The notes beneath the pieces are model-generated. The model was given only the letters and a program-made list of their open reading frames with translations. It ran no database searches and had not been told where the DNA came from. From NCBI GenBank assembly GCA_963732385.1, contig CAVSZB010000003.1:416001-480000 (forward strand): DNA of 64,000 bases, given 5' to 3'. How positions within the stretch are numbered: the stretch's first letter is position 1; every line of letters begins with the position of its first letter. Source of the stretch: an uncultured bacterium (lineage in GTDB: Bacteria > Krumholzibacteriota > Krumholzibacteriia > LZORAL124-64-63). Both the position numbers and the translations under genes were made by a program. Below are positions 4,393 through 26,448 of the stretch, piece after piece.

Positions 4393-5337
4393 TCAGCCGG
4401 CCAGTCGGCAACCCAGGGCGATCGAGAGGAATTTCGACTCTTCGGTGTCGGCGCGGCTGGTCAGCACGCAGGGGGCGGAGGTGCCGATCACGATCCCCGC
4501 CAGGCGGCCGCCGGCGAGCAGCGTGGCGCACTTGTAGAAGACATTGCCCGCGGCGATTTCGGGGAAGATGAGGATGTCCGCGGCGCCGCCCACCGGGCTC
4601 GACAGCTCCTTGATCGCGCAGGCTTCGGGCGAGAGCGCCACATCGAGCGCCAGCGGTCCGTCCACGATCGCGTCGCCGAGCTGTCCGCGGTCGGCCATCT
4701 TGGCGATGATCGCGGCATCGAGCGTTTCGGGCATCTTCTCGCTGACCTTCTCGTTCGCGGCGATCAGCGCGGCGCGTGGCCGCTCGATCCCGAAACTGCG
4801 CGCGGCCAGGATGCAGTACTTCAGGATCTTCGCCTTTGTGGCCAGGTCGGGCCGCGGGATGATGGCGACATCGGACACGAACAGCAGCTTGCCGTGCGTC
4901 CGCTGGTAAGCGGGGATGTCGAGCACCGCCAGGTGCGTCAGCACATTCCCGGGCGCCAACAGCCCCCTGTCTTTGTCGAGAATCAACCTCATGTACTTGT
5001 CGGTGCCGAGGAGCCCCTTCATCAGCACGTCGGCCTGACGTTCGCGCACGAGGTCGCGCGCGCGGATGCCGGCCGCGGCCTGGTCGGGCTCGTCGATGAT
5101 CGTAAAGAGGGTGGCGTCAATGTCGCGTTGCCGGCACAGGTCGAGGATCTTCGTCTGGTCGCCGACGAGGATCATCTCGGCGATGCCCTCCGCCGCCGCG
5201 CGCGCCGCGGCCTGGATGGAGTTGGGGTCGTGCCCCGCCGCCACCGCCACGCGCCGGGGCCGGACCGGCGTGGCGGAGGCGCGGCTGACGGCCTGCAGCG
5301 ACTCCACGAGCTGGTCGAGTGTGCGGATCGGGTTCAT
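4393..5337 (-). CDS. ptb: Phosphate butyryl/acyltransferase (PTA_PTB family)
   Basis: ADVLMKG, DGPLALDVALS, GNVFYK and an intact VLTSRAD catalytic motif; adjacent to butyrate kinase. Confidence 0.9.
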   Translation of the reverse strand: MNPIRTLDQLVESLQAVSRASATPVRPRRVAVAAGHDPNSIQAAARAAAEGIAEMILVGDQTKILDLCRQRDIDATLFTIIDEPDQAAAGIRARDLVRERQADVLMKGLLGTDKYMRLILDKDRGLLAPGNVLTHLAVLDIPAYQRTHGKLLFVSDVAIIPRPDLATKAKILKYCILAARSFGIERPRAALIAANEKVSEKMPETLDAAIIAKMADRGQLGDAIVDGPLALDVALSPEACAIKELSSPVGGAADILIFPEIAAGNVFYKCATLLAGGRLAGIVIGTSAPCVLTSRADTEESKFLSIALGCRLAG

Positions 5338-7550
5338 CGCGCCTCCTCCGGCGCGTAGACACGCGCCGCCTCCTTGCCCTGCAGGACGCGCAGGGCCCCC
5401 TTGACGAGGGCGGTCATTTCGTTCTCGCCAGGATAGACCGTCACGCCGCAGCCCAGCGCGGAGACCGAGCGCTCGATCATGTCCACCAGCAGTTGCGAAC
5501 GCGCCAGCCCGCCGGTGAGCAGGACGCGGTCGACCGGCTCGCCGTCGAAGGCCGGCACCAGCGCCGCGATGTTCTTGCCGATCTGGTAAGCCATCGCCTC
5601 CACGACCGCGGTCGCTTCAGGATCGCCGGACAGCACGCGCTGTTCCACCTCGCGGAAATCGGCGGTGCCGAGCAGGTCGATCAGGCCGCCGCGTCCCTTG
5701 TTGAGCTGCTTGAGCTCCGCGTGGGTGTAGCGCCCGGAGAAACAGAGATCGATGAGCTGGCCGGGTGGCAGCGAACCGGAGCGCTGCGGCGTGAAAGGGC
5801 CTTCGCCGTTGAGGCCATTGTTGACGTCGATGTAGCGTCCGTGCTTGTGCGCGCCGACCGTGATGCCGCCGCCCATGTGGCAGACGATCAGGTTCAGGCT
5901 CTCGTAGAAGTTCTCGTGTTCCTCGGCATAGCGCCGCGCGGTGGAGATCTGGTTGAGCGCGTGGCTGACGACCACGCGCCGGAGCGCCTTCAGGCCGGTG
6001 ATTTTTACCCGGTCCGGCACCTCGTCCACGACGACCGGATCGACAATGAACGCCGGCTTGCCGGTGCCCGTCACCAGTTCGTGCGCGATCAGAGCGCCGA
6101 GGTTCGAGGCGTGGTCGCCGCCGACGCCGCCCAGCAGGTCCTCCCGCATGCGGCTGTTCACGGCGTAGGTGCCGTGCGGGATCGGCCGCAGGACGCCGCC
6201 GCGTCCCGACACCGCGTCGAGATCCGCCACGCCGAGCTGATGCGCGGCGAGGGCGGTGAGGATGACCTCCTTGCGGAAGCCGTACTGCGCCATGATGCTC
6301 TGTCCCTCGAACGGCGCCAGTTCGGCGGCGGTGTGCGTGAGTTCGGCCGTGAAGACCTCCTGGTCCCCCTCGTAGACGCCGATCCTGGTGGAGGTCGAGC
6401 CGGGGTTCACCGCCAGGATGCGGAAGCGGCGGCAGAACGTGTCGAGCGGCGTGCGGCTCCAGTGCCCGAAGCGGTGCAGGCGCAGCACGCTCGCCTTGAC
6501 CGCCAGGCGGGCGTCCTCGGTGGCGCAGTCGAGCGGCAGGTCGACGCCGCGAAAGCGCAGTCCGAACATCACCGGGAACTTCTTCGATTCGGGGAAACGC
6601 GAAGCGTACAGATGGTAGAGCAGGTTCCCCATGTCGAGGTTCGGGCAGATGAGGGCGTTCGTGCCGCCGGCCAGCTCGGCATCTTCGGCATGGTAGTAGG
6701 TGGCGGAGCGGCGCGAGAGCGCCACGCTCACCTTCACGGGCCCGTGGATGCGGATCGACGCGTAGCGCGCGCCGACGGCCACGCGCTTGGCCAGGATTCC
6801 GGGCACGAGCGCCATGGCGTCGCGCACGAGGTCGGCTGCCGGCCCCTCGTCCGCGCCGCGGTGCGAGTACGATACGATGGCGCCCTTGATGACCGGCAAC
6901 ACGTCCTCGGGGATAAGGTCGCGCGCCACGGCGCAGGTGCCGACCGCGCAGTGAGCGAGAATCTCGGGCGTCATGGTGCCGTTCACGCCCACGTCCCCGA
7001 ACACGACGATGTTGTGGGGGAAGACGTCGCCCGGAAAATCGTCCGGCAACACGAATACGCCGGCCTCGCACTGGATGCGTTGCATGTGCAGCAGGCGCAG
7101 CATCGGTCGGAAATAGTCGCGTGGCTCGTGGTCGGCGCCGCCGACGACCATGTCGGCGTGGCCGAGCCGCACGCACATGATGCCGAACTTCGCCGGTTCG
7201 TACACCAGCGCCCGGGCTTCGTCTAGGGTGCGCGCCCGCGCCATCTCGGGCGGCAAATCGAGACAGGCGCGCGCGAACTGTTCGCGCAGATCCGCCCGCT
7301 CCTCGATGTCGATGAACGTGCTCTCGGCAAGCGTGAAACGCACCCTGGTTGAGTCGAGGTGGCACAGATCGCGCGCGATCACCTCGCGCACGGCCGCCTC
7401 GGGCGCGAGGAACACCGGACGCACGAAGCGGGTGAGGTGACACGCAGCCTCGATGATCCGCGGATCGAGCGGCTCGATAAAGACCACCGTGGGGCGGTTC
7501 TTCATGTGGGCCAGGATCTGGGTGTCGAGACTGTTCTCGAGGTCGTACAT
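5334..7550 (-). CDS. buk: Fusion of an N-terminal Pta-like domain (degenerate active site) and a C-terminal butyrate kinase
   Basis: The C-terminal half has ILAVNPGSTST, GRGG, HASNLG, VDPVVVDE, HALNQ, HMGGGITV and GPFTPQRSG. The N-terminal ~370 aa are Pta-like (LICPNLDMGNLLY). Start taken at MYDLEN (7550), preceded by GGAGG. Confidence 0.88.
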   Translation of the reverse strand: MYDLENSLDTQILAHMKNRPTVVFIEPLDPRIIEAACHLTRFVRPVFLAPEAAVREVIARDLCHLDSTRVRFTLAESTFIDIEERADLREQFARACLDLPPEMARARTLDEARALVYEPAKFGIMCVRLGHADMVVGGADHEPRDYFRPMLRLLHMQRIQCEAGVFVLPDDFPGDVFPHNIVVFGDVGVNGTMTPEILAHCAVGTCAVARDLIPEDVLPVIKGAIVSYSHRGADEGPAADLVRDAMALVPGILAKRVAVGARYASIRIHGPVKVSVALSRRSATYYHAEDAELAGGTNALICPNLDMGNLLYHLYASRFPESKKFPVMFGLRFRGVDLPLDCATEDARLAVKASVLRLHRFGHWSRTPLDTFCRRFRILAVNPGSTSTRIGVYEGDQEVFTAELTHTAAELAPFEGQSIMAQYGFRKEVILTALAAHQLGVADLDAVSGRGGVLRPIPHGTYAVNSRMREDLLGGVGGDHASNLGALIAHELVTGTGKPAFIVDPVVVDEVPDRVKITGLKALRRVVVSHALNQISTARRYAEEHENFYESLNLIVCHMGGGITVGAHKHGRYIDVNNGLNGEGPFTPQRSGSLPPGQLIDLCFSGRYTHAELKQLNKGRGGLIDLLGTADFREVEQRVLSGDPEATAVVEAMAYQIGKNIAALVPAFDGEPVDRVLLTGGLARSQLLVDMIERSVSALGCGVTVYPGENEMTALVKGALRVLQGKEAARVYAPEEAR

Positions 7551-7740
7551 CGGTCCCTCCCGCGGCGAGGGGGCGGCGGTCCGGCGACGGCGGCGGCGGT
7601 CTTCTAACCACAATAGTCACCCACGGGACGCGGTTTATCAACTTCAGCGACTCGCCGGCGGCGGTGCTCCGCCATTATTAATGTGGAAAAGCCGTCCGGG
7701 GCCGTGGCACGATCGGGGAACGTCTGCGGGTTTGTCGCCG

Positions 7741-9771
7741 GTGATCGGGGAGGCTGCGATCAGTAATTCAGGGAAGGCTGCGTTTGCCGCGCATGGAGCG
7801 CCGGGGGCGCCGGGGAAGTCCGCCCTGGTGGCCGCGGGCGAACGGCGCCTGGCCGGCGTGCTGGGCGCCGTGCCCGAGCGCTGGCTGCTGGTGAGCACGC
7901 ATTACCAGCGGCTGCTGCTGATCCGCAGCGGCGCCGTGGCGCGGCAGTACCGCGTGTCCACCGGCGCGGCCGGCGTGGACGGCCGCGAGGGTTCGGGCGG
8001 TACGCCGCCCGGCGTGCACACCATCGCCGCCCGGATCGGCGACGGCGAACCGGTCGGCGCGGTTTTCCGCGACCGCGTGGCCACGGGCGAAGTGTGGTCG
8101 TCGGCAGCGGCGGGCGGAGTGTCCGGCCCGGCCGCCGAACTCATTCTGACCCGCATCCTCACTATCGAGGGCTGGGAGCCGGGGGTGAACCGCGGTCCCG
8201 GCTGCGACAGTCTCGCCCGCTACATCTACATCCATGGCACCGATGACGAGGCGCGGCTCGGGCAGGCGGTGTCGCACGGCTGCGTCCGCCTGGCCGGCGA
8301 CGACATCGCCTCGCTCCACGACGAAGTGCAGGTGGGGGATCCGGTCGTCATCCTGCCGGATCGTCCGCTGCGCTACCACTTCGCCGGCATCGCCGGCAGC
8401 GGCATGAGTGCCCTGGCTCAGTACCACGTACTCGGCGGGGGGCTCTGCAGCGGAAGCGACCGGGCGTTCGACGCCGGTGAGAGGGGCGAGATCCGCGAGC
8501 GGCTCGAGGCGCTCGGCGTGGTGATCGCGCCGCAGGACGGCAGCGCGCTCGCTCCTGTCGCCGCGGGTGGCGCCGACGCCGCGTCTCCCGACTGCGACGG
8601 CCTCATCGTCTCGAGCGCCGTCGAGGAGAGCGTGCCCGACGTAGCCGCGGCGCGGCGGCTGGGCGTGCCGGTGCTGCACCGCTCCGAACTGCTGGCCCGA
8701 TGCGTCGACGAGCGGCAGACCGTCGCCGTGGCCGGCACGAGCGGCAAGTCCACGGTCGTGGCGATGATCTTCGAGATCCTGCGCGGCTGCCGGCGGGACC
8801 CCTCGGTCATCACAGGTGGTGAACTGCGGCTGCTGCAGGGCGAAGGGCTGCTTGGCAACGCCTGGGCCGGTCGCGGCAAGATGCTGGTCATCGAGGCGGA
8901 CGAGAGCGACGGCAGCGTGACCCGCTATGCGCCGTGGGCCGGCGTCCTGCTGAACATGCAGCGCGACCACAAGGAACTGGCCGAGCTGGCGGCGATCTTC
9001 GCGGCCTTCCGGCGCAACGTCCGCGGACCGTTCCTGGTCGGCGAGGACGAGAATCTCGCGCCGTTCGCGGCGAACGCCACCCGCTTCGGTTTATGCGAGA
9101 CCTGCGCCGTCCGCGCCCAGGATGTCCTGCTCACTCCCGACGGCGCGCGTTTCTCGGTCGCGGGGGTGCGTTTCACGCTGCCCGTTCCGGGCAAGCACAA
9201 CGTGAGCAACGCCGTCGCCGCTCTGGCCGTTTGCCAGGCGCTCGGACTGCGCTTCTCGCAGATGGCCGCCCCGCTGGCGCGGTTCCAGGGGGTGGCGCGG
9301 CGCTTCCAGATCGTGGGGCGCGCGCGCGGGGTGGAGGTCGTGGACGATTTCGCTCACAACCCCGACAAGATCGCGGCCGCTCTCTCCACCGCCCGTGCCC
9401 GCGGCAGGCGGATCCTCGCCGTCTTCCAGCCGCACGGCTTCGGCCCGACCCGCTTCCTGCGCGACGATCTCATCGCGGCGTTCACGCGCGGCCTGCGGCC
9501 GACCGATCGGCTGTATCTTCCGGAGATCTTCTTCGCCGGCGGCACCGTTACGCGCGACATCTCGTCGCACGATATCGCCGCGGCGGTGGCGGCGCGCGGC
9601 GTGCCGGCGCTCTTCACCGAGCGGCGCGACGACATCGTGCCGTCGATCGCCGGCGAGGCGCGCGAGGGGGATGTGATCCTGGTCATGGGCGCGCGCGATC
9701 CGTCGCTCACCGACTTCTGCCGACGGATTCTGGCGCGTCTCGAGGCGCGCGGCAGCGACGAACGGCGCTAA
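7741..9771 (+). CDS. Fusion of an L,D-transpeptidase (YkuD) domain and a UDP-MurNAc-peptide ligase (MurC/Mpl family)
   Basis: YkuD motifs: YRVSTG, TPPG, IYIHGT...SHGCVRL. Mur ligase motifs: HFAGIAGSGMSALA, AGTSGKST, EADESDGS, PGKHNVSNA, DDFAHNP, VFQPH. One continuous frame; start uncertain (7681-7828). Confidence 0.85.
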   Translation: MIGEAAISNSGKAAFAAHGAPGAPGKSALVAAGERRLAGVLGAVPERWLLVSTHYQRLLLIRSGAVARQYRVSTGAAGVDGREGSGGTPPGVHTIAARIGDGEPVGAVFRDRVATGEVWSSAAAGGVSGPAAELILTRILTIEGWEPGVNRGPGCDSLARYIYIHGTDDEARLGQAVSHGCVRLAGDDIASLHDEVQVGDPVVILPDRPLRYHFAGIAGSGMSALAQYHVLGGGLCSGSDRAFDAGERGEIRERLEALGVVIAPQDGSALAPVAAGGADAASPDCDGLIVSSAVEESVPDVAAARRLGVPVLHRSELLARCVDERQTVAVAGTSGKSTVVAMIFEILRGCRRDPSVITGGELRLLQGEGLLGNAWAGRGKMLVIEADESDGSVTRYAPWAGVLLNMQRDHKELAELAAIFAAFRRNVRGPFLVGEDENLAPFAANATRFGLCETCAVRAQDVLLTPDGARFSVAGVRFTLPVPGKHNVSNAVAALAVCQALGLRFSQMAAPLARFQGVARRFQIVGRARGVEVVDDFAHNPDKIAAALSTARARGRRILAVFQPHGFGPTRFLRDDLIAAFTRGLRPTDRLYLPEIFFAGGTVTRDISSHDIAAAVAARGVPALFTERRDDIVPSIAGEAREGDVILVMGARDPSLTDFCRRILARLEARGSDERR

Positions 9772-10877
9772 CGCACCAGCGCACCGGCCGCCAGCTCGCG
9801 TCCCGCTCCGGTCAGCGTCAGCGCGCCGGCCTGCTCGCTCACCAGTCCGCGTTGTCCGGCGGCGCGCACCACGCGCGCCGCGAACTCCGGCGCCCAGCGC
9901 AGATGATCGTGGAGGTGGTCCACGCGGCTCTCGACCGCCTCTTCGGGCGTGCCGGCGTGCTGGGCGAGATGGATGGCGAGCATGGCGAGGGCGAATTCGA
10001 GGCGCTGCCGCGCCCGGCGGCGGGCCTGCACGAGGAGGCCGCGTTCCGGGGCGAGCGCCAGCGCCAAAGCGAAGACGACGCCGGTCATCGTGGCCATCGA
10101 GCCGGCGATCGAGGCGTCGAGCAGGTGCGCCATCCAGTAGCCGCCCAGGGCGGCCGCCACGCCCAGCAGCACGCTCAGTCCGATCATGGCCGGCAGCCGG
10201 TCGGTCAGCAGGTAGGCGGCAGCAGGCGGTCCGATCATCAGCGCCACGACCAGGATGAGGCCGACCGCGTCGAACGCCCCGACCGCCGTGACCGACACCG
10301 CGCCCATCATGCCGTAGTGGATCAGCGCCGGCGCGAAGCCGAGCGCCGCCGTCAGACCCGGGTCGAACGACGCCAGCTTGAGCTCCTTGTAGAACACCAG
10401 CATCAGCAGGCCGTTCAGGGCGAGGATGCCGCCCATCATCCAGAGCGCGCGCGGGCCGAGGTCGACGCCGGCCGCGCGCAGGCGCTCGAACGGCGCGAAC
10501 GCCAGCTCGCCCAGCAGGACAGCGTCGATGTCGAGGTGCACGTTGCCGGCGTAGCGCGAAATGAGGATGACGCCGAGGCTGAACAGCGCCGGGAAGACCA
10601 GCCCGATGGCGGCGTCCTCGCGGACGCGTCCGGTGCGCTGCAGCAGCTCCACGAGGGCGACCGTCAGCACGCCGGTGGCTGCGGCGCCCAGGACGAGCCA
10701 CGGCGAGGCAAGATCGCCGGTGGCGAAGAAGGCGACCACGATGCCGACCAGGATCGAGTGGCTGATCGCGTCGCTGAGCATGGCCATCCGGCGCAGCACG
10801 AGGAAGACCCCCGGCAGCGCGCAGGCCGCGGCGGTCACGGCGGCGATGGCCTGGATCTCGAACTGTGGCTGGGTCAC
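9768..10877 (-). CDS. Mn/Zn/Fe ABC transporter permease (TroD/MntD-like) with C-terminal wHTH-like tail
   Basis: GVFLVLRRMAMLSDAISHSILVG, FYKELKLASFDP; GTG start coupled to the upstream stop. Confidence 0.9.
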   Translation of the reverse strand: MTQPQFEIQAIAAVTAAACALPGVFLVLRRMAMLSDAISHSILVGIVVAFFATGDLASPWLVLGAAATGVLTVALVELLQRTGRVREDAAIGLVFPALFSLGVILISRYAGNVHLDIDAVLLGELAFAPFERLRAAGVDLGPRALWMMGGILALNGLLMLVFYKELKLASFDPGLTAALGFAPALIHYGMMGAVSVTAVGAFDAVGLILVVALMIGPPAAAYLLTDRLPAMIGLSVLLGVAAALGGYWMAHLLDASIAGSMATMTGVVFALALALAPERGLLVQARRRARQRLEFALAMLAIHLAQHAGTPEEAVESRVDHLHDHLRWAPEFAARVVRAAGQRGLVSEQAGALTLTGAGRELAAGALVR

Positions 10878-12034
10878 GTCGCGACCTCCCCGTCCGGCGT
10901 TTCGCCCCGACCGGCGTGATCGCCGGCGACCAGCGCCCGCGCCGTCGCGACCCCCGCCAGGGTGAGCGCCCAGGCGTCGTCGCCGGCCGGGCGCACCAGG
11001 CCGCGGCCCTGCAGCGCCGCGAGGGCGCGCCGCGCGCCGGGTCCGGTGCCCATCGCGTGCAAAACGGCGCGCGCGTGCGGAGCCTCCTCGGGACGTTCGT
11101 GCTGGGCGGCGAGGTGGTAAAGGTTGGCCAGGACGGTGTCGGCGTGCAGGCGGCGCCGCGCCCGCTGGTTGCGCGCCGCCTGCCACAGCAGGCCGCGGTT
11201 TGGCGCGCAGGCGAGCGAGAACGCCACGATCGCCGTCGCGCACAGGACGATCACCGGGCCGGTCGGCAGGCGCGCCGTGAGGCTGCTGATGATCGCTCCG
11301 CCCACCCCGGCCGTCGCGCCGAAGATCGCCGAGAGAACGATCATCCGGCCGAGGCGGTCGGTCCACTGCCGCGCGGCCGCGGCCGGCGCCACGATCATCG
11401 CGCTCATCAGCACGACCCCCACCGTCTGCAGGCCGCTCACGATCGCCACGACGAGCAGCGTGGTCAGCAGCACATCGAGCCGGCGGGCCGGGAAGCCGAG
11501 GCTCGCCGCGAAATCGGGATCGAAGGCCAGCAGTTTGAATTCCTTCCAGAGGACGAGCACCACCACGAGCGCGGCGGCGCCGAGCACCGCCATGCTGATG
11601 ACGTCGCGCGCGAGCAGCGTGGCCGCCTGTCCGAACAGGAACTTGTCGAGGCCGGCCTGGGTGGCGTCGGGTCGTCGCTGGATGAAGGTGAGCAGGACCA
11701 TGCCGAAGCCGAAGAATACCGACAGCGTCAGGCCGAGCGCGCTGTCGGCCTTCACGCGCGACGAGCGCAGGATGCCGCCGATCAGCAGCGTGGCGAGCCA
11801 GCCGGCCGCCGCCGCGCCGAGCACCAGCACCAGCGGCGCCTTGCTGCCGGTCAGGAGGAACGCGAGGGCGATGCCGGGCAGCGCGGCGTGCGAGATGGCG
11901 TCGCCGAGCAGGCTCTGGCGACGCAGCACGGCGAAGGCGCCGAGCGCCCCGCTGGCCAGTCCGAGCACGCCCGAGCCGAGCGCCACGGTGCGCAGCGTGT
12001 AGTCGAACAGGAGGTCGTGCAGCAGCTTGCCCAT
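10874..12034 (-). CDS. Mn/Zn/Fe ABC transporter permease (TroC/MntC-like) with C-terminal wHTH-like tail
   Basis: GAFAVLRRQSLLGDAISHAALPG, WKEFKLLAFDP, PTGPVIV. Confidence 0.9.
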   Translation of the reverse strand: MGKLLHDLLFDYTLRTVALGSGVLGLASGALGAFAVLRRQSLLGDAISHAALPGIALAFLLTGSKAPLVLVLGAAAAGWLATLLIGGILRSSRVKADSALGLTLSVFFGFGMVLLTFIQRRPDATQAGLDKFLFGQAATLLARDVISMAVLGAAALVVVLVLWKEFKLLAFDPDFAASLGFPARRLDVLLTTLLVVAIVSGLQTVGVVLMSAMIVAPAAAARQWTDRLGRMIVLSAIFGATAGVGGAIISSLTARLPTGPVIVLCATAIVAFSLACAPNRGLLWQAARNQRARRRLHADTVLANLYHLAAQHERPEEAPHARAVLHAMGTGPGARRALAALQGRGLVRPAGDDAWALTLAGVATARALVAGDHAGRGETPDGEVAT

Positions 12035-12041
12035 CAGGCCC

Positions 12042-12866
12042 TCACACCCGCCCGCGCCCGCCGGTCGGCGTGGCCGTGTCGTCGCTGCCGCCCGCCGCGC
12101 CCGGGCCGTCGGGCGCCAGGAAACCGACGCGCCCGCCGTACGCCAGGCGCAGATTCTGCTCCGTAAAAGCCGTCGCCACCGGACCGCTGGCGATGCGGCG
12201 CACGTTGAGCAGCGTGACCCAGTCGAAGTACTCCGGCACCGTCTGCAGGTCGTGGTGCACGACGACGACCGTCTTCCCCTCCGCGCGCAGGTCCTGCAGC
12301 AGGCCGATGATGGCCCGCTCCGTGCGCGCATCGACCCCCTGGAACGGTTCGTCCATGAAATAGACCTGCGCCTCCTGCACGAGCGCGCGCGCCAGGAAGA
12401 CCCGCTGCTGCTGCCCCCCCGACAGCTGGCTGATCTGACGGCCGCGGAAGTCGGCCATGCCGACCTTGGCCAGCGCCTCGAGGGCGAGGTCGCGCTCGCG
12501 GCGCCCCGGGCGGCGCACCCAGCCCAGCGCGCCGTAGCGTCCCATCATCACGACGTCGAGCACGGTCGTGGGGAAGTCCCAGTCGACGCTGCCGCGCTGG
12601 GGCACGTAGCCGACGATACCGCGCTGCTGCGCGTATGGCCGGCCGTGGATCAGCACCTGCCCGGCCGCCGGCCTGACGAGGCCGAGGATCGCCTTCATGA
12701 GCGTGGTCTTGCCGGCGCCGTTGGGCCCGACGATCGCCATCAGGATGCCGGGCGGCACGGCGAGGTCGACGTCCCACAGGACCGGGCGTTCGCGGTAGGC
12801 GACGGTGAGGTCGGCCACCTCGATCGCGAAGCTGGCGGTGGTGGCGGCGCTGGCGTGGACGTTCAT
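12042..12866 (-). CDS. Metal ABC transporter ATP-binding protein (TroB/MntB-like)
   Basis: Walker A GPNGAGKT, signature LSGGQQQR, Walker [24 protein letters not shown]. Confidence 0.93.
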
Positions 12867-13828
12867 GGCGTCTCCGGAGGGGTGAGGAGCCCCGCGACGA
12901 TCGTGTCGATGTTGTGGCGCACCATACCGGCGTACGTCCCCGCGGGGGAGCCGCGGGCGCCCATGGCGTCCGAGTAGAGCGAGCCGCCGATGCGCACCGC
13001 GAAGCCGCGCGCCCGCACCGCGGCCCGCACCGCCTCGATCGCGCGCGGCGATACCGAGGTCTCCACGAACAACGCCGGGATCCGGCGCTCCGCGATCAGC
13101 GCCGCCAGCTGCTGCACGTCCGCCGTGCCGGCCTCGGCGGCGGTGCTGATCCCCTGCAGTCCGCGCACCTCGAACCCGTAGGCGCGGCCGAAGTAGTTGA
13201 AAGCGTCGTGCGCCGTGATCAGCACCCGCTGCGCCTGCGGCACCCGCGCCGCCTGGACGCGTACGTAGGTGTCGAGCGAGTCGAGCGTCGCCAGATAGCG
13301 GTCGGCGTCGGCGCGATATTCCGCCTCGCGGTCGCGATCGGCCACGATCAGCGCGTCCAGCACCCGCGTCGCCGCCTCCCGCCACAGCATCACGTCGAAC
13401 CAGATGTGCGGGTCGTGAGCCCCCTTGAAGGCGGCCGGCGCCAGCAGCTGCGCCTCCGGGATCCGTTCCGCCACCGCCACCGTGCGGATCCGCCCCTGCA
13501 TCCGCTCGAATACCCGCGCCAGCCGCGCCTCGAGGTGCAGCCCGTTGTAGAAGACGAGGTCGGCCTCCTGCAGCCGCTGCACGTCCCCCTCGCTCGCCTT
13601 GTAGAGGTGGGGATCGACTCCGGGCCCCATCAGGGCGCGCACCCGCACGCGTTCGCCGCCGATGTTCAGCGCGATGTCGGCGATCATGCCGGTCGTGGTG
13701 ACGACGTTGAGGTGGCGCGGGCCGCCAGCGGTCTCATCGCGGTTGTTCCGCGCGCAGCCCGCGGCGGCTGCCGCGAACAGGGCGAGCACGATTGCCAGGA
13801 ACACGACCGGTACACGTTCCGCCCTCAC
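12863..13828 (-). CDS. Metal ABC transporter substrate-binding lipoprotein (TroA/MntA-like)
   Basis: Lipobox-like [29 protein letters not shown] and LYSD metal ligands. Confidence 0.93.
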
Positions 13829-25762: not shown

Positions 25763-26371
25763 TCACTTAAAACACCCCAAAGGCAAATCAAGTAGCCTGA
25801 GGTCAAAATTCCACGGGTCATCCTTACGACCCGGAGAGATCCGTGCGTGGGTGACAACGTAGCGAAGCGGGTAAAGACGGCCCATCCGCGCCAGCAGGGC
25901 GTTCAGGCCGGCATATTGCGCCGGCGTCAGGCTGTCGGTCCTGGTGGTCATCATTTCGATGCCGAGGGAGAACCCGTTGACCCCGGTGCGCCCGTCGGAC
26001 ATCCGGCTGCGGCCGGCGTGCCAGGCGACGTCGCGGTCACGCACCGTCCGCCAGACCGTGCCGGCGCGATCGATGACGTAATGCGGGGCCACCCCGTACT
26101 GGCGGTACTCCGCGAGCAGGCCGTCGAGGTCGTACGGATCGGGACCGAGCGCGTCGTAGGACGAATGGATGACCACGGTGTCGATCGCGCGCGGTGCGGC
26201 GTGCGGCGCGTGGCCGAAGTCGACCAGGCGGTCGTGGATGACAAGAGAGTCGGGGGGGGCGGTGGCGGCGTCCGGCGGCGCCGGGGCGGCGGGCACGAGT
26301 GTCGCCAACAAACCGAGGGCCGCGACGGCCAGCCCGAAGATCGCGCGGAGAGACCGGGGGCAGGATGGCAT
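25763..26371 (-). CDS. N-acetylmuramoyl-L-alanine amidase (Amidase_2/AmpD-like), exported
   Basis: Signal peptide; VVIHS, APHYVIDRAG, AWHAGRS, NGFSLGIE, VTHARISPGRKDDP. Confidence 0.88.
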   Translation of the reverse strand: MPSCPRSLRAIFGLAVAALGLLATLVPAAPAPPDAATAPPDSLVIHDRLVDFGHAPHAAPRAIDTVVIHSSYDALGPDPYDLDGLLAEYRQYGVAPHYVIDRAGTVWRTVRDRDVAWHAGRSRMSDGRTGVNGFSLGIEMMTTRTDSLTPAQYAGLNALLARMGRLYPLRYVVTHARISPGRKDDPWNFDLRLLDLPLGCFK

Positions 26372-26448
26372 GACCGACTCTCCCTGTCCGAGCCCCTTGT
26401 TCACGTGGCGAAAGACGCGGACCAGGTTCCGCCGGCGGGCGATCTGCG

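Follow-up and report, generated by a model that had tools for sequence, protein, structure and literature searches.

A YkuD-Mur ligase fusion protein from a Krumholzibacteriota bacterium, a probable trim-then-ligate enzyme of murein-peptide salvage

The DNA analysed here (the window, 64,000 nucleotides; positions 416,001 to 480,000 of contig CAVSZB010000003.1, assembly GCA_963732385.1) originates from an uncultured bacterium of the Krumholzibacteriota and carries a plus-strand gene in which a YkuD domain is fused to a Mur ligase (Table 1). The reading frame is uninterrupted from position 7453 to the stop codon at 9769-9771, and Pfam identified in this single frame, each with a score above the cut-off, the domains YkuD, Mur_ligase, Mur_ligase_M and Mur_ligase_C (residues 143-300, 308-419, 426-594 and 616-748, respectively, counted from 7453). 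An earlier note on this DNA had described an intact YkuD catalytic motif joined in frame to a complete Mur ligase, and this description holds: the HGT and SHGC motifs were both found intact upon direct reading, and the three ligase domains, starting at 8374, are all in place. There are three candidate start codons, namely ATG at 7681, which was chosen by the gene caller and gives 696 amino acids, GTG at 7741, which was the start in the earlier note and gives 676 amino acids, and GTG at 7828. Conservation across the fusion relatives starts near 7819 as judged by the alignment, and the AlphaFold2 model of the protein (mean pLDDT 89.3, pTM 0.86) predicts disorder for the first 21 residues of the 7741 form.

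Table 1. Features of the fusion gene and the region upstream of it, in window coordinates; class B is the ligase clade defined in the text
Feature	Position	Strand	Basis
Divergent intergenic region, AT-rich stretch, containing the candidate start ATG 7681	7551..7740	.	Sequence reading; minus-strand gene starts at 7550
Fusion gene, ElsL-like YkuD L,D-carboxypeptidase domain and class B MurC-like ligase, both by prediction	7741..9771	+	Pfam, NCBIfam, alignment
Conserved N-terminal helix ALVAAGERRLAGVLGA, without a hydrophobic signal-like segment, preceding the YkuD core	7816..7863	+	Model helix 26-41, conservation, Kyte-Doolittle
YkuD catalytic domain, ElsL-like	7879..8352	+	PF03734, 71.2 bits; NF040925, 119.6 bits
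HGT, YkuD active-site motif	8233..8241	+	H261, G262 and T263 invariant in 27/27 aligned fusions
SHGCVR, catalytic cysteine motif (SHGC at 8272-8283)	8272..8289	+	S274, H275, G276, C277 and R279 invariant in the same 27-fusion alignment
Linker LPDRPLR between the two enzymes; gene-overlap site in split relatives	8353..8373	+	Alignment, loci of relatives
Mur ligase N-terminal (nucleotide-sugar binding) domain with HFAGIAGSGMSALA	8374..8709	+	PF01225, 47.7 bits; motif common to solved MurC chains
Mur ligase middle (ATP) domain with P-loop GTSGKST (8734-8754) and EADESDG	8728..9234	+	PF08245
Mur ligase C-terminal domain, for the incoming amino acid or peptide	9298..9696	+	PF02875, 72.9 bits
DDFAHNPDKI, with F at the MurC Tyr346 position and N at the MurC/Mpl His position	9343..9372	+	Residue counts
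QPHGFGPTR, with Gly and Pro at the H. influenzae MurC Arg377 and Arg380 positions	9427..9453	+	Residue counts

The fusion is real and conserved. Among the matches listed, all 120 homologs (54-92% identity) have the same architecture of a YkuD domain followed by three Mur ligase domains, the nearest fused homologs (87-92% identity) come from four different sources, and fused forms are known from several phyla. Two further genomes of the same family (G436 and G456) likewise have a single frame across both parts. Moreover, contigs of approximately 94%-identical relatives from two studies cover positions 7700-9750 and bridge 8355-8370, where the two enzymes meet; the indels listed for these contigs are at 7800/7805, 8522, 8552-8563 and 8659/8662, and none at the junction. 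A contig from an RNA library (X18, 8208-8475) also crosses the junction, which is no proof of transcription, and none of the public sequencing runs contains more than 0.22 of the sampled words of the gene.

The earlier note had held that separate genes in relatives, together with a stop or frameshift near 8355-8370, would speak against a fused enzyme. The first of these is indeed seen in many relatives, whereas the window frame has neither a stop nor a frameshift at 8355-8370. The ligase is present in 18/21 sampled genomes of the window's family (its own genome counted), and in each of the 15 genomes lacking a single frame the ligase ORF (open reading frame) is immediately preceded and overlapped by an ElsL-like YkuD ORF that is read in a different frame. 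At three split loci (L018, L019 and L022) the ligase frame has a TTG that follows a GGAGG-like stretch, within the terminal part of the YkuD gene, and the loci look like genuine overlapping gene pairs. Since the overlaps are short and the frames different, fused and split forms differ by a frame change, and both are natural. Such split loci (15/15) are also what one would point to in arguing that the fusion arose from an error of assembly or sequencing, as a one-base indel would merge two overlapping genes. This explanation was nevertheless rejected, and we regard it as extremely improbable, in view of the close fused homologs from four sources, the fused forms in several phyla, the single frame in G436 and G456, and the junction-bridging contigs with indels elsewhere. 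The overlap between the YkuD and ligase genes amounts to 14-45 nucleotides in many relatives (L018:2276-4325, L019:7983-9906, L022:1593-3525; L164-L178), and fused and split states alternate among genera within one family.

With regard to the YkuD domain, the Pfam profile PF03734 matched over positions 2-146 of its 146 with 71.2 bits (cut-off 23.4), and the catalytic motifs of the protein are unchanged throughout two alignments, of 27 and 65 fusions. The best NCBIfam match was ElsL (NF040925; 119.6 bits, E 1.1e-34, positions 10-153 of 164), and the models of periplasmic Ldt enzymes scored about 30 bits (E 1e-6 to 1e-7). However, the ElsL score (123.6 bits in the genome search) is far below the cut-off of 270, so that the domain is a relative and not an equivalog of ElsL. 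ElsL of Acinetobacter baumannii is described as a cytoplasmic L,D-carboxypeptidase of the YkuD type that converts M4 to M3; the purified enzyme trimmed disaccharide tetrapeptide to tripeptide and left the pentapeptide intact, and its function requires the active-site cysteine C138 (PMC8649774). Without ElsL, tetrapeptides are ligated by Mpl, and this makes its loss toxic (PMC8649774). A natural fusion to a ligase is not mentioned in the available portion of that account (PMC8649774).

A search of 1.84 billion representative proteins gave 2515 relatives of the YkuD domain at E <= 0.001; the best 150 of these 2515 are mostly stand-alone proteins of 150-290 amino acids, and three are fused to a Mur ligase. 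Close relatives of the window's YkuD domain were also seen as C-terminal parts of other proteins, with rhamnosidase-like six-hairpin glycosidase domains as partners in 7 clusters (P0144, P0158, P0160, P0214, P0220, P0244 and P0260), and further partners are Bac_transf, Peptidase_M23, apolipoprotein N-acyltransferase, CYTH and DUF423 (P0148, P0215, P0238, P0256 and P0127).

Neither the window protein nor any of the 120 homologs showed an N-terminal hydrophobic h-region in a Kyte-Doolittle scan, which is a crude method. The hydrophobic windows that were flagged are all within folded domains, and all but two are in the ligase; the two exceptions lie in the YkuD core of P0108 and at residues 33-51 of P0071, in a strand that precedes the YkuD core. 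A cytoplasmic location of the fusion protein is predicted, and its attachment to a cytoplasmic ATP-dependent ligase argues for the same.

The ligase part belongs to the Mur ligase superfamily as judged by PF01225 (47.7 bits), PF08245 (40.3 bits) and PF02875 (72.9 bits), which matched in this order and above their cut-offs, and its GTSGKST and EADESDG motifs are invariant across the same 27 and 65 aligned fusions. Neither of the candidate family models accepted it, with 288.8 bits for MurC (TIGR01082, cut-off 335.1) and 94.4 bits for Mpl (TIGR01081, cut-off 388.7). A scan of species-representative genomes yielded 80 ligase loci which, together with an added Mpl reference set (E. coli K-12 and 22 Pseudomonadota loci), were sorted by motif into three kinds. 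MurC has GTHGKTT, DDY[AG]HHPxE and QPHR[YF][ST]RT, Mpl has GTHGKTT, DDFAHHPTAI and EPRSNTM, and the third kind, here called class B, has GTSGKST, DD[FY]AHNPxK and QPHG[FY]GPTRFL. All three class B signatures (GT[SA]GK[ST]T, DD[FY][AG]HNP and QPHG[FY]xP) are present in the window protein; GTSGKST and DDFAHNPDKI, which the earlier note had singled out as deviating from MurC, are indeed unlike the MurC motifs. A profile built from the fusions scored 405-822 bits with class B, 173-286 with MurC and 99-154 with Mpl, the 822 bits of the window being partly by construction since the profile alignment (A1) includes its sequence.

A maximum likelihood tree was computed for 81 ligase domains under LG+G4 by a quick search, with MurD as the outgroup. 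In this tree the 44 class B rows and the 12 Mpl rows each formed one branch with an SH-aLRT support of 100, and the Mpl branch excluded every class B row. The 81 rows remained after 37 had been dropped from a 118-row set, randomly within over-represented groups and with the key rows fixed first; the 118-row set had already been cleared of twelve near-duplicate Chitinophagaceae loci, of seven duplicate loci and of four fragments. All 17 YkuD-linked rows cluster (support 87), the window among them with P0008 as its nearest row. The tree does not resolve the MurC backbone and hence does not show whether Mpl or a MurC subgroup is the sister of class B. These results show that the window ligase is neither a MurC nor an Mpl orthologue, being instead a member of a separate, well-supported third clade, and the designation MurC/Mpl-type in the earlier note is to be corrected accordingly. 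In databases the fusion homologs, among the matches listed, are named MurC, 'L,D-transpeptidase family protein' or 'glutamate ligase domain-containing protein', and pathway reconstructions consequently miss class B proteins. A few class B genes contain an internal stop (L034:2441-3832 from a Chitinophagaceae metagenome-assembled genome (MAG), and G450:C97:9455-10849 and G427:C1:222273-223709 from the window's family); they may be pseudogenes or sequencing errors.

The incoming L-Ala in Haemophilus influenzae MurC is surrounded by His376, Arg377, Arg380, Tyr346 and His348 (PMC3060825). We mapped these positions via E. coli MurC, where the Tyr and the His are likewise 30 residues apart, and counted residues in 35 MurC, 23 Mpl and 51 class B sequences. 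At the Arg380 position MurC has R (35/35), Mpl M (23/23) and class B P (51/51), and at the Arg377 position MurC has R (30/35), Mpl S (23/23) and class B G (51/51). The arginine pair of MurC is thus gone from class B, as it is from Mpl. The Tyr346 position is Y in MurC (35/35), F in Mpl (23/23) and either F (41) or Y (10) in the 51 class B sequences, all of which have N at the next His position in the DDFAHNP motif. In addition, the third residue of the P-loop is S in 48/51 class B sequences, as opposed to H in every MurC (35/35) and Mpl (23/23). The window protein itself has F, H, H, G and P at the positions of Tyr346, His348, His376, Arg377 and Arg380, and hence lacks the L-Ala set of MurC.

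The host genome (3.82 Mb, 9 contigs, 95.8% complete) contains a canonical murC (500.3 bits, above the cut-off) with other mur genes in the dcw cluster on contig C7. The fusion gene is on contig C3, which confirms that it lies outside the dcw cluster as had been noted earlier, and with a separate murC in that cluster the fusion ligase is not required for de novo addition of L-Ala. Canonical MurC, above the cut-off, was also found in 4/5 genomes with stand-alone class B. These observations bear on the possibility that the ligase adds a single amino acid, either L-Ala as a second MurC isozyme or else Gly or L-Ser, with the carboxypeptidase merely clearing tetrapeptide-bearing precursors and no peptide being ligated. 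We consider this unlikely. It would be in keeping with murC being the best family model and with the fold being nearest to closed MurC structures, but the score is below the murC cut-off, the invariant Arg380 of MurC is Pro in every class B sequence, and both the host and most stand-alone class B genomes have a canonical murC as well. It would also leave unexplained why class B is repeatedly linked to carboxypeptidases of two unrelated folds and why Mpl is absent, both of which are described below.

Two divergent groups nested in class B have to be weighed in this connection: an Elusimicrobia form with QPHA..S (L024, L030 and L046, Elusimicrobiota), whose genes adjoin other mur ligase genes, and a form called type 3 with QPHTPFS (L065, L070 and L108, Alphaproteobacteria MAGs). 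One genome (G004) has a class-B-like ligase only, and another (G010) has class B and type 3 and gave no canonical MurC match. Both forms, each seemingly the sole MurC-like ligase of its genome or one of two, appear to replace MurC as the housekeeping ligase where no canonical MurC was found, which speaks for an isozyme, and the class B scaffold may therefore be able to add L-Ala without the arginine pair. It should be underlined that, with such MurC substitutes nested in it, the clade is not uniform, and loss of the arginines is alone no proof of peptide specificity. Even an Mpl, that of Psychrobacter arcticus (PaMpl), has weak activity towards L-Ala (0.7 versus 260 per minute; PMC3060825).

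The association of class B with L,D-carboxypeptidases is seen in two unrelated folds, YkuD and S66, the latter being the family of LdcA. Among 48 class B loci, YkuD is fused to the ligase in 6 and encoded by an adjoining gene in 3, and an S66 gene adjoins the ligase in 8, while no YkuD or S66 was fused or adjacent at any of the 29 MurC-type loci. In Latescibacterota, Holophagaceae and gut Alphaproteobacteria MAGs, the S66 gene and class B share a strand, and S66 overlaps class B or follows it directly; in a Parvularculaceae MAG the two genes are divergent. Class B was present in 21/401 evenly sampled Pseudomonadota genomes, and in all 21 an S66 gene is located head to head with it, with 66-299 nucleotides between the profile matches. 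Moreover, S66 was found in 5/5 genomes with stand-alone class B and in 0/4 genomes with the YkuD fusion, the window's own included. The two types of carboxypeptidase substitute for each other.

It is also evident that class B and Mpl do not occur together in the genomes searched. Mpl above the cut-off was detected in none of 30 class B genomes (the window's own; G006, G007, G008 and G010; the 21 Pseudomonadota genomes; and G001, G002, G003 and G005), as compared to 55/81 evenly sampled Pseudomonadota. Within the latter sample, all three class B genomes are among the 26 without Mpl (one-sided exact test about 0.03, kinship ignored). In the host genome, checked for separate genes as the earlier note had proposed, the dcw murC is present, whereas a profile search of the whole genome found no Mpl over the cut-off and no S66 gene was found. 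Together with the ElsL match and the linkage to two folds of carboxypeptidase, the absence of co-occurring Mpl gives comparative support to the earlier proposal of LdcA-like trimming combined with Mpl-like re-ligation.

Several observations weigh against a peptide-ligase role. In addition to the nested MurC substitutes, murC (288.8 bits) is the best family model of the ligase, well above mpl (94.4 bits), and in Foldseek searches of the PDB with the AlphaFold2 model the ligase part aligned with closed MurC at TM-scores of 0.84-0.87 (root mean square deviation, rmsd, 2.4-2.8 Å) and with Mpl at 0.69, the solved Mpl being an open form; no PDB entry covered both the YkuD and the ligase domain. At 31/48 class B loci, mostly from Bacteroidota, no carboxypeptidase lies within the flank examined; in the three such genomes that were checked, S66 is found elsewhere in the genome. 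The S66 family also has members other than LdcA. The class B counts come from related genomes, which overstates their independence, and the 21 Pseudomonadota genomes with class B may represent one lineage. The upstream recycling route in the host is also thin, as the genome has an AmpG-like permease of 188.7 bits, below the cut-off of 350, and one GH3, and neither AnmK nor a cytoplasmic AmpD-type amidase was found in this 95.8% complete assembly.

Class B has a patchy distribution, being present in 4/121 Bacteroidota (the centre genome counted) and in 18/61 genomes in the sample of the window's phylum, all 18 from one family. In Bacteroidota, stand-alone class B genes are sometimes located near genes of cell-wall turnover (L031:9614-10684, L025:8985-10295, L060:6729-7946 and L031:7172-7885), including an SLT lytic transglycosylase at two loci, a major facilitator superfamily transporter directly upstream in Chitinophaga (L060), and a glucosamine-6-phosphate isomerase-like gene. 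The sole Amidase_2 gene of the host genome (AmpD/AmiD fold) lies in the window at 25766-26380 on the minus strand, and its product has a hydrophobic signal-like N-terminus, AIFGLAVAALGLLATLVPA. From this segment the protein looks exported, unlike the cytoplasmic AmpD, which may mean that the fusion protein's route is supplied with free peptides instead of anhydromuropeptides.

The neighbourhood of the fusion gene in the window gave no functional hint. The divergent upstream gene (5337-7550, minus strand) encodes a 738-residue fusion of a PTA_PTB phosphotransacylase and an acetate/butyrate-kinase-family protein, and is directly followed by a second PTA_PTB gene (4396-5337, minus strand). On the other side, an operon for a ZnuA-type metal ATP-binding cassette (ABC) transporter (9771-13828, minus strand) converges on the fusion gene, its last stop codon overlapping that of the fusion. 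Both of its ABC-3 permeases have approximately 95-110 residues outside the Pfam domain, for which no family match was obtained.

Taken together, we consider it probable that the fusion protein is a cytoplasmic enzyme that first trims and then ligates salvaged murein peptides, a non-orthologous analogue of Mpl. Both enzymatic activities, their substrates and UDP-MurNAc as acceptor are what we infer from the comparative evidence, and the peptide-ligase role is predicted from linkage and phyletic pattern. Recycled stem peptides would enter the cytoplasm, where the YkuD domain would cut the terminal D-Ala off tetrapeptides. The ligase would then activate UDP-MurNAc with ATP, by the acyl-phosphate chemistry common to Mur ligases (PMC3060825), and attach the tripeptide to it, and the product would pass on to MurF. 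When a peptide ligase acts without a carboxypeptidase, toxic UDP-MurNAc-tetrapeptide is formed and, as reported for mutants of ldcA and elsL, cross-linking is poisoned by tetrapeptide that was ligated before it could be trimmed (PMC8649774, PMC13046382). Such toxicity would be expected to select for a trimmer that stays tied to the ligase, and an arrangement as fusion, overlapping genes, operon or divergent pair fits this expectation.

The two parts could also be combined differently, namely in a cytoplasmic editing enzyme in which the YkuD domain swaps the terminal residue of the stem peptide, or in an enzyme whose ligase uses another substrate, for instance a dipeptide or tetrapeptide, or another acceptor. 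Most YkuD enzymes are transpeptidases, the pocket resembles neither that of MurC nor that of Mpl (N for H, and G..P), so that the substrate may differ as well, and PaMpl accepts tetra- and pentapeptides, although poorly (PMC3060825). Yet ElsL, the nearest characterised relative of the YkuD domain, is a hydrolytic carboxypeptidase, the S66 enzymes that stand in for YkuD in other lineages are not transpeptidases, which indicates trimming as the common step, and the N-terminal UDP-binding motif is conserved with MurC. We therefore regard these alternatives as improbable. Peptide exchange or editing had been offered in the earlier note alongside trimming, and nothing in the present analysis favours it over plain trimming.

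In Proteobacteria, murein peptides are known to be reused after trimming by LdcA, ElsL or LdcV and re-attachment by Mpl. To our knowledge, recycling by trimming and re-ligation has so far been credited only to separate enzymes, LdcA or ElsL and Mpl, and our literature search gave no description of a YkuD-Mur ligase fusion or of the class B clade. A 2026 eLife study of Caulobacter states that tripeptide reuse is probably lacking in the many species that have no LdcA and Mpl, the current view being that they degrade stem peptides to amino acids (PMC13046382). There is a reasonable, if somewhat lower, likelihood that class B as a whole constitutes a third family of UDP-MurNAc ligases, as yet without a name, which serves many Mpl-lacking bacteria as murein-peptide ligase, and that it is always kept with an L,D-carboxypeptidase of either fold since untrimmed ligation is toxic; the lineages concerned would be Krumholzibacteria-like bacteria, Acidobacteriota, Verrucomicrobiota, Chloroflexota, Nitrospirota, Fibrobacterota, some Alphaproteobacteria and some Bacteroidota. 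If true, tripeptide recycling would be far more widespread than the current view holds. The class B clade, which is physically coupled with the trimmer in no fewer than eight named lineages and excludes Mpl throughout the searched genomes, would fill this gap, and the coupling would explain why trimmer and ligase are retained jointly.

Compared with known systems, the YkuD domain resembles ElsL in its fold, in the predicted lack of a signal peptide and in the catalytic Cys of the SHGC motif, and it matches 144/164 positions of the ElsL profile. ElsL trims cytoplasmic tetrapeptides to tripeptides upstream of a peptide ligase (PMC8649774), but it is a stand-alone protein acting with a separate Mpl, whereas the window domain is joined to a ligase of another clade and scores 119.6 bits against the cut-off of 270. 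The window's lineage is outside the ElsL ortholog groups that are named in the available portion of that account, Proteobacteria and Verrucomicrobia (PMC8649774).

The ligase shares with MurC the best family match (288.8 bits), the best sequence match to a solved structure (E 2e-47), the best fold match (TM-score 0.86 and rmsd 2.7 Å to 1p3d) and the N-terminal HFxGIxGxGMS. It differs from MurC in being encoded outside the dcw cluster, in having Gly and Pro for Arg377 and Arg380 and Ser for the P-loop His, and in a score below 335.1. With Mpl it has in common that it is a three-domain, MurC-related enzyme without the arginine pair for L-Ala and with Phe at the Tyr346 position, and the predicted role, downstream of an L,D-carboxypeptidase, is the same. 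The motifs are nevertheless different (GTHGKTT, DDFAHHPTAI and EPRSNTM in Mpl versus GTSGKST, DDFAHNPxK and QPHGxGP in class B), and so is the clade (SH-aLRT 100).

The closest parallel for the entire system is LdcA (S66) with Mpl in E. coli, for which the predicted logic is the same: a tetrapeptide is trimmed and the tripeptide is then ligated. Other lineages pair the class B ligase with an S66 gene. In the host of the fusion, in contrast, where no S66 was found, a domain of the YkuD fold would serve as the trimmer, and one polypeptide would carry out both steps.

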